Below are positions 58,113-58,144 of a DNA stretch of 64,000 bases, in pieces. Each line of letters begins with the position of its first letter. Position 1 is the first letter of the stretch. The notes below the pieces were generated by a model. The model made no database searches. It was not told where the DNA came from and saw nothing but the letters and a program-made list of their open reading frames with translations. Position numbers and translations under genes: made by a program. Source of the DNA: Escherichia coli (GTDB lineage: Bacteria; Pseudomonadota; Gammaproteobacteria; Enterobacterales; Enterobacteriaceae); assembly GCF_030384885.1 (NCBI RefSeq), contig NZ_CP128613.1, one strand, 5' to 3'.

Positions 58113-58144
58113 GGTGCGCATAATGTCAACGCGTTATGTTGAAA
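58113..58144. other. Hybrid dif-like Xer site: consensus XerC arm GGTGCGCATAA + extended centre TGTCAACGCG + degenerate XerD arm TTATGTTGAAA; left prophage junction
   Basis: 11/11 match to the E. coli dif XerC arm 77 bp after hipA (where dif lies in E. coli), then divergence from dif (TGTATA-TTATGTTAAAT). Confidence 0.6.

Follow-up and report, generated by a model that had tools for sequence, protein, structure and literature searches.

The dif locus beside hipA and its filamentous prophage

The window, by which we mean the whole 64,000-nt stretch of Escherichia coli DNA that was analyzed, has the surroundings of an E. coli chromosome, including the lsr operon, an autotransporter gene and hipBA. 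A dif-like 32-mer, GGTGCGCATAA-TGTCAACGCG-TTATGTTGAAA, begins 76 nt past the stop codon of hipA and occupies positions 58113-58144 of the + strand, with exactly the letters quoted in the original prediction. From 58124 to the end of the window the DNA is AT-rich and encodes a filamentous phage. The features of the locus, in window coordinates, are as follows.

56714-58036, + strand: hipA, the chromosomal gene flanking dif in E. coli (annotated in relatives L001 and L003 and in K-12, L002); the window open reading frame that contains it spans 56657-58036
58111-58126, + strand: 16-nt block TTGGTGCGCATAATGT, the same in host dif (attB) and phage attP1 (from comparison of the window, the K-12 empty site, and the inter-copy junction and right end of L001)
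58113-58123, + strand: XerC-binding arm GGTGCGCATAA, formally host-derived at the left junction (11/11 to dif; the only exact copy in the window)
58124-58133, + strand: attP1 center TGTCAACGCG, 10 nt, made up of TGT (as in dif) followed by a variable bulge, CAACG, and by CG (58126-58130 are unpaired in the fold)
58134-58144, + strand: XerD-type arm of attP1, TTATGTTGAAA (9/11 to the dif XerD arm TTATGTTAAAT)
58145-58178, + strand: GC-rich stem-loop closing the predicted attP(+) hairpin, the stem AGGCCGCTGCG / CGCAGCGGCCT being perfect over 11 bp and the loop 12 nt long (from sequence and fold)
58179-58205, - strand: attP2, an inverted dif-like site GGTTCGCACAA-TGACG-TTATGCTAAAG with a 5-nt center (second in the window scan; pairs with 58113-58144)
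58211-59140, - strand: cargo protein of the STM4504/CBY_0614 family, 309 aa (NCBIfam NF046078, 456 bits)
59224-59917, - strand: two small open reading frames (59224-59646 and 59735-59917) with no function assigned, where related phages have regulatory genes (hypothetical in L001)
60087-61139, + strand: replication initiator of the pII/X family (TIGR01629, 258 bits)
61151-64000, + strand: genes for ssDNA-binding, coat, attachment, pVI-like and Zot/pI proteins, cut by the window end (from the annotation of the 99.5%-identical L001 copy)

In PADLOC, the cargo gene at 58211-59140 also weakly matches the candidate defense system PDC-S32 (E = 4.5e-10), and profile searches gave no family match for the two small open reading frames beside it. 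In the full annotated copy of the phage in L001, the genes include those for pII, coat, attachment, Zot and secretin proteins, and neither the annotated phage genes of that copy nor the open reading frames of the window include an integrase, a transposase or a recombinase. Going by the L001 copy, approximately 2.7 kb of the phage and the dif at its right end are placed beyond the window. At least 80% of the stretch 57000-60000 is present in only 17 of 5426 complete E. coli genomes, and the element is therefore accessory. The sequence immediately after attP2 differs among family members (58206-59140 in the window and its equivalents in L006-L067), whereas the hairpin is 93-100% identical among them, so that the slot beside attP looks like a variable cargo position.

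When both strands were scanned for a XerC arm, 4-13 nt and a XerD arm, positions 58113-58144 ranked first, with two mismatches in total and a spacer of 10, and the inverted neighbor at 58205-58179 ranked second, with four mismatches and a spacer of 5. Shuffled windows scanned in the same way yielded 0 sites at two or fewer mismatches and 0.1 at four or fewer. The dif-like site is real and not a chance match. As originally predicted, this is a hybrid dif site with an intact XerC arm, which matches dif at all 11 positions, and with a center longer than the 6 bp of dif, namely 10 nt at 58124-58133. A separate 11-mer resembling the XerC arm, at 56087 within the autotransporter gene (one mismatch), is at chance level, with two such sequences found against 1.9 expected.

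Junctions in K-12 and in related prophages

The empty site of K-12 (L002) has canonical dif at the same spot, behind the same hipA-side flank (...ccttggtttatattGGTGCGCATAATGTATATTATGTTAAATcatgtctgag...). There, the center and arm of the K-12-type dif read TGTATA-TTATGTTAAAT, and the flank to its right reads catgtctgagtgatgcg.... The window follows the K-12 empty site up to TTGGTGCGCATAATGT (58111-58126) and is divergent afterwards. No copy of canonical dif occurs anywhere in the window when up to three mismatches are allowed, and the right junction was therefore studied in relatives instead. The closest of these is L001, from E. coli O20:H12, with two tandem phage copies of 8575 bp and 99.5% identity to the 5.9 kb of phage DNA that lie in the window. 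Its left junction is the same 32-mer as that of the window; the junction between its two copies is again the same 32-mer, with phage DNA upstream (...ccatccttaccattGGTGCGCATAATGTCAACGCGTTATGTTGAAA); and after the second copy a perfect dif is joined to the K-12 right flank (...ccatccttaccattGGTGCGCATAATGTATATTATGTTAAATcatgtctgagtg). This is the pattern that exchange at the XerC side of dif would be expected to leave.

The same junctions bear on the idea that 58113-58144 is the host's own dif, either a native allele or a damaged site, with a small insertion and point changes in the center and XerD arm. Such an origin could explain why the XerC arm and TGT are intact and are followed, after 4 extra bases, by a XerD arm with 9 of 11 positions matched. 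However, the DNA to the right of 58126 is that of the phage and not the K-12 right flank, the identical 32-mer joins the two phage copies in L001, and the 32-mer is also found on phage-only IMG/VR contigs whose left flanks are phage-derived. Relatives, moreover, have a perfect dif and the K-12 right flank after the prophage. An altered host dif is refuted by the K-12 empty site, the L001 junctions and the phage-only contigs, and we regard it as hardly credible; with canonical dif at the K-12 empty site, the window sequence is not the native allele.

The XerC arm and TGT of phage attP1 are the same as those of dif, so the left junction and attP1 have the same sequence. It follows that sequence places the crossover only within 58111-58126. 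Placement on the XerC side, as in the original prediction, is upheld, but the resolution claimed there, to within a few bases at about 58124-58127, is finer than these 16 nt permit. We take XerC cleavage to fall at 58123/58124, as established Xer biochemistry would lead one to expect. Relatives in which the arm of the phage differs from that of the host are informative here. The host arm, GGTGCACATAA, is found at the left junction in Yersinia pestis (L070), and the phage arm, GGTGCGCATAA, between copies (L071). Two E. coli phage types behave likewise: next to the host flank the arm is GGTGCGCATAA, and next to the phage flank it is AGTGCGCATAA (L051 versus L052; L027 versus L039). These family members show a host origin for the left XerC arm.

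Three contigs among the relatives deserve separate mention. In L053, from IMG/VR, an E. coli-type dif flank TTGGTTTATATT is followed by AGTGCGCATAA, with the phage-type first base, and not by GGTGCGCATAA; a plain host arm at attL would not give this sequence unless the L053 host has a dif that starts with A. Two metagenome-assembled genomes, L069 and L076, labeled Candidatus Nanosynbacter and Ruminococcaceae, have the E. coli hipA-dif flank joined to attP, and these contigs are most likely contamination or mis-binned E. coli DNA.

We put the probability at about 0.9 that the dif-like site is attL, the left end of an inovirus prophage of approximately 8.6 kb integrated at E. coli dif through host XerC/XerD, of CTX type and belonging to the CUS-1/Ypf family. 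On this reading, the site is a scar together with the top-strand half of a CTX-type attP. That a phage attP half had been joined to host dif by exchange on the XerC side was part of the original prediction, and it is borne out by the point of divergence from K-12, an integrase-less prophage, the dif rebuilt in relatives and the host arm at left junctions. No other integrase/att system bounds the element.

Integration could instead have begun with XerD, as in TLC-type elements, or have been the work of a dif-targeting IS1202-family transposase. Other E. coli strains do have IS1202-family elements at dif, inserted at a distance of 5 bp from its XerC arm and containing a copy of this hairpin. In the window, however, neither an IS end nor a 5-bp duplication intervenes between the hipA flank and the XerC arm, which are directly joined, and the element has no transposase. 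Nor does an exchange started by XerD agree with a break with dif on the XerC side of the center rather than on the XerD side. The junction sequences exclude TLC-type and IS1202-type insertion for the window locus, and we consider routes of this kind very improbable.

A predicted attP hairpin and proposed CTX-type integration

The partner site attP2, which is absent from the original prediction, lies 34 nt from attP1 in the opposite orientation. Folded as single-stranded DNA, the + strand of 58105-58212 forms one long hairpin of -32.7 kcal/mol (z = -7.6), and none of 200 shuffled sequences folded as well. In this fold the pairing of the XerC arms is interrupted by one G.A mismatch and includes one T.G wobble; the center contributes two pairs, a 5-nt bulge (58126-58130) and three more pairs; and the XerD arms pair with two wobbles. 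By analogy, attP1, attP2 and the GC stem correspond to a CTX-type attP(+) with a 5-nt bulge. The - strand folds at -30.0 kcal/mol, leaving the + strand more stable by 2.7 kcal/mol. Because the - strand also folds well, strand specificity rests on the wobble pairs and on analogy. The structural genes of the phage lie on the + strand of the window, so that the usual inovirus convention would make the + strand the packaged one. The GC stem-loop, with TTTTC next on the - strand, may also terminate the leftward cargo gene. A terminator scan did not list it, probably because only loops of 3-8 nt were accepted and the loop here has 12 nt.

Conservation of the site was assessed in three scans: one of IMG/VR with an attP1-type pattern, a second of IMG/VR with a pattern that took the GC stem as its sole anchor, and a third of representative genomes of 100,044 species. 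Across the three, the same architecture was found in more than 50 distinct contexts, mostly contigs of 7-14 kb. Its common layout is a XerC arm, TGT, 5-6 variable nt, CG, TTATGTTGAAA, a GC stem-loop and attP2. The representative genomes gave matches in Yersinia pestis, Photorhabdus, Pectobacterium, Kluyvera, Lelliottia and Kosakonia, with hairpin and attP2 kept in all except the Kosakonia copy. In an alignment of 27 distinct variants, in which the GC stem was partly fixed by the search pattern, 96.3% of pair cells hold standard pairs, compared to 29-54% when the partners are slid, and G.T wobbles are conserved at three positions. The bulge is hypervariable, with 13 variants and a mean identity of 0.52, and the loop has a mean identity of 0.62, compared to 0.86-1.00 in the paired segments. 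The stem-anchored pattern did not impose TGT or CG, and in the set it gave both are invariant. Covariation is thin: only three pairs change on both sides, nearly all stem columns are invariant, and the observed values of five covariation measures were reached by 9-38 of 500 shuffles. Our argument therefore rests on the conservation of pairing and on where variation is located, and not on covariation.

Variation is confined to the bulge and loop that are predicted to be unpaired, so that the 10-nt center and the XerD-arm variant are conserved family features and not decay. This changes the reading of the XerD arm. The original prediction had it departing from dif, as it does (9/11), and called it degenerate, a term that does not hold for an arm, TTATGTTGAAA, that differs from dif at two outer positions and is near-invariant over the phage family.

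The phage with which the locus invites comparison is CTX of Vibrio cholerae. Both phages lack an integrase and reside at dif, and in the (+) strand of each, two dif-like sites of opposite orientation pair with each other (for the window phage, by prediction); the long-centered one has the XerC arm and TGT of dif. In CTX, attP1 is AGTGCGTATTA-TGTGGCGCGGCA-TTATGTTGAGG, with a 12-nt center, and pairs with an attP2 whose center has 7 nt; one strand pair is exchanged with dif by XerC, and replication completes integration (PMC3089051). The centers thus measure 12 and 7 nt in CTX (PMC3089051) and 10 and 5 nt in the window phage, a difference of 5 nt in both. Position 8 of the XerD arm is G in either phage. 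Integration of CTX leaves one functional dif and the non-functional attP1 and attP2 (PMC3089051). In the same way, a left site expected to be non-functional and, judging from relatives, a rebuilt dif would flank the window prophage, whose relatives include tandem arrays. The two differ in the host and in the sequences of the arms, in the spacer between the sites (approximately 90 nt in CTX compared to a 34-nt perfect stem-loop here) and in cargo, which is cholera toxin in CTX and a STM4504/CBY_0614-family gene in the window phage. For the latter, the mechanism is proposed from sequence. Of the CTX-type features, the window itself holds the position at dif, an integrase-less filamentous genome, paired inverted sites and a hybrid left junction, while the right dif was seen in relatives only.

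We infer the mechanism, comprising XerC catalysis, a single-stranded substrate and irreversibility, from the CTX paradigm. In the packaged (+) ssDNA, attP1 (58113-58144) would pair with the inverted attP2 (58179-58205) around the GC stem-loop, giving a duplex made up of a XerC arm, a center with a 5-nt bulge and a XerD arm. XerC could then cut both hairpin and dif after GGTGCGCATAA and swap one strand pair, an exchange that the TGT common to both sites would stabilize, and replication would turn the intermediate into a prophage. The left product would then consist of host XerC arm, phage center and phage XerD arm; the right product, with phage XerC arm, host center and host XerD arm, would be a working dif. 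XerC-catalyzed integration of ssDNA, completed by replication, has been shown experimentally for CTX phage (PMC3089051, PMC3442271), and an ssDNA integration step has been proposed from sequence for the CUS-1/Ypf phages (listed as CTX-related in PMC4246890 and PMC3442271).

What the left site might do as a duplex depends on its spacing. Functional dif is laid out as an 11-bp XerC arm, a 6-bp center and an 11-bp XerD arm, from which the window site departs by its 10-bp center. The plasmid Xer sites cer and psi resemble the window site in having XerC and XerD arms around a center unlike that of dif. Those sites have centers of 6-8 bp (8 bp in cer) and act in multimer resolution as duplexes aided by accessory sequences; the window site, in contrast, has its arms 10 bp apart and lies at a prophage end. 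In duplex form, the left site is expected to support neither dimer resolution nor excision, as there is no partner hairpin and the arms are 10 bp apart, whereas the functional Xer sites known to us have centers of 6-8 bp. Failure in dimer resolution, as the original prediction had it, is also what work on CTX (PMC3089051) and Ypf (PMC4266046) would lead one to expect. Dimer resolution would, on the CTX-type reading, be done by the dif rebuilt beyond the prophage.

An alternative hypothesis is that the phage integrates in the manner of VGJ, its double-stranded replicative form recombining with dif at the single duplex site 58113-58144 by exchange on the XerC side, in which case the partner site would be irrelevant and the prophage could be excised by the reverse reaction. 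The junction products predicted are the same (to the left a XerC arm from the host, to the right a rebuilt dif), and attP1 and dif do have the XerC arm and TGT in common. Nevertheless, the duplex arms would be 10 bp apart compared to 6 bp in dif (PMC3089051), and a partner site and hairpin kept family-wide, with variation only in the unpaired parts, are hard to explain with one duplex site. The literature, in addition, puts the CUS-1/Ypf family with CTX (PMC4246890). We therefore think VGJ-type integration improbable. VGJ- and TLC-type elements likewise rely on host XerC/XerD and insert at dif, but the VGJ type has one duplex attP and the TLC type starts with XerD-mediated exchange (PMC4246890). 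What sets the window phage apart from them is its paired hairpin, the presence of a XerD arm and a break with dif on the XerC side.

CUS-1/Ypf relatives and IS1202-family elements

CUS-1 of E. coli O18:K1:H7 and Ypf of Y. pestis are dif-integrating filamentous phages classed with CTX (PMC4246890, PMC3442271), and the two are about 99% identical over 7.1 kb (PMC4266046). The Ypf phage is reported to occur in tandem, with an imperfect dif where one copy meets the next; its XerC/XerD sites are inverted, and its 3' end carries an intact dif (PMC4266046). CUS-1 occupies the same E. coli insertion site beside hipA/dif as the window phage. Over the stretch compared, from the XerC arm to attP2, the Y. 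pestis attP equals that of the window outside the bulge, which reads ACGACT in Ypf (11-nt center) and CAACG in the window (10-nt center).

For further comparison, the NC101 prophage and an 8.7-kb Ypf-like IMG/VR contig served as stand-ins for CUS-1. The NC101 prophage was taken as CUS-1-like because it is 96.6% identical to that contig over 6.8 kb, which matches the relationship between CUS-1 and Ypf (PMC4266046). Its attP and first 1.6 kb of cargo are 98.5% identical to those of the window, compared to 80% in the pII/pV replication module. The morphogenesis genes of the window gave no blastn match to the structural genes of the CUS-1-like and Ypf-like phages. In the phage collection searched, which held no close relative of the window phage, the nearest to its structural genes were IKe, I2-2 and Erwinia PEar phages, at 66-68% nucleotide identity (the best in that collection). 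With this mix of modules over 60045-64000, the window prophage is a mosaic relative of the CUS-1/Ypf family and not CUS-1 itself.

CTX-phage-type insertion has already been proposed for CUS-1 and Ypf, and the window prophage is a clean but ordinary example of it. Its junction is what this family is known to leave, and no new mechanism is implied. What it adds is a CTX-type, Xer-dependent filamentous prophage located at the terminus of E. coli, together with the finding that dozens of enterobacterial inoviruses with different cargo have in common the conserved bulged hairpin proposed for CUS-1/Ypf. For annotation, dif is not the right name for the dif-like string beside hipA, since the working site is on the far side of the prophage. 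The alignment of the family also gives a design basis for a model of single-strand integration outside Vibrio, in which bulge and loop are free and the arms, TGT and CG are fixed.

On superinfection, Ypf is reported to favor the imperfect dif that separates copies (PMC4266046), and such sites may therefore still accept XerC-mediated integration. We speculate, while thinking it unlikely, that a duplex site of attP1 type (a host or phage XerC arm, TGT and a long center) is not inert and that XerC captures further ssDNA phage copies there, and, relatedly, that the hairpin and cargo slot are swapped as a module between filamentous phages and dif-targeting IS1202-family elements. Secondary capture, if it occurs, would account both for tandem arrays in relatives and for the published but unexplained site preference of Ypf on superinfection (PMC4266046). 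Module exchange, if it occurs, would spread candidate defense genes to plasmid Xer sites.

Passenger-carrying, dif-targeting IS such as ISKpn21 have been published (bioRxiv 10.1101/2022.12.17.520857; PMC10132070), and a search of the text of preprint 10.1101/2022.12.17.520857 for "phage" gave 0 occurrences. A copy of the hairpin, 93% identical over query positions 58135-58208 of the window, lies inside an element of the IS1202/ISNCY family of approximately 2.8 kb, at 4931-7750 in L005 (plasmid NZ_CP049102) and at 6933-9715 in L004 (the chromosome of E. coli 7/2). This copy comprises the attP1 XerD arm, the GC stem-loop and the whole of attP2, without the XerC arm and center of attP1. On one side of it is the IS end (TGTCAAAGCTCAG...) and on the other a passenger gene, either of the SIR2 family or homologous to STM4504/CBY_0614 (60% amino acid identity to the window cargo). 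The ends of the element are TGT...ACA, and its 5-bp duplication is ATGTT. Between the element and the neighboring XerC arm are 5 bp, the arm being that of dif on the chromosome or that of a dif-like site, TGTGCGCACAA-TCTATC-TTATGTTAAAT, on a plasmid. Of 5426 E. coli genomes, 939 had a match to the hairpin query, and 484 of the matching places were on plasmids. In the IMG/VR contig L012 (951-991), an IS1202-family end (...CTCTATAATTTT) adjoins the XerC arm of a prophage left junction; with L004 for comparison, this indicates that dif-targeting IS and Xer-dependent phages can stack at one site.
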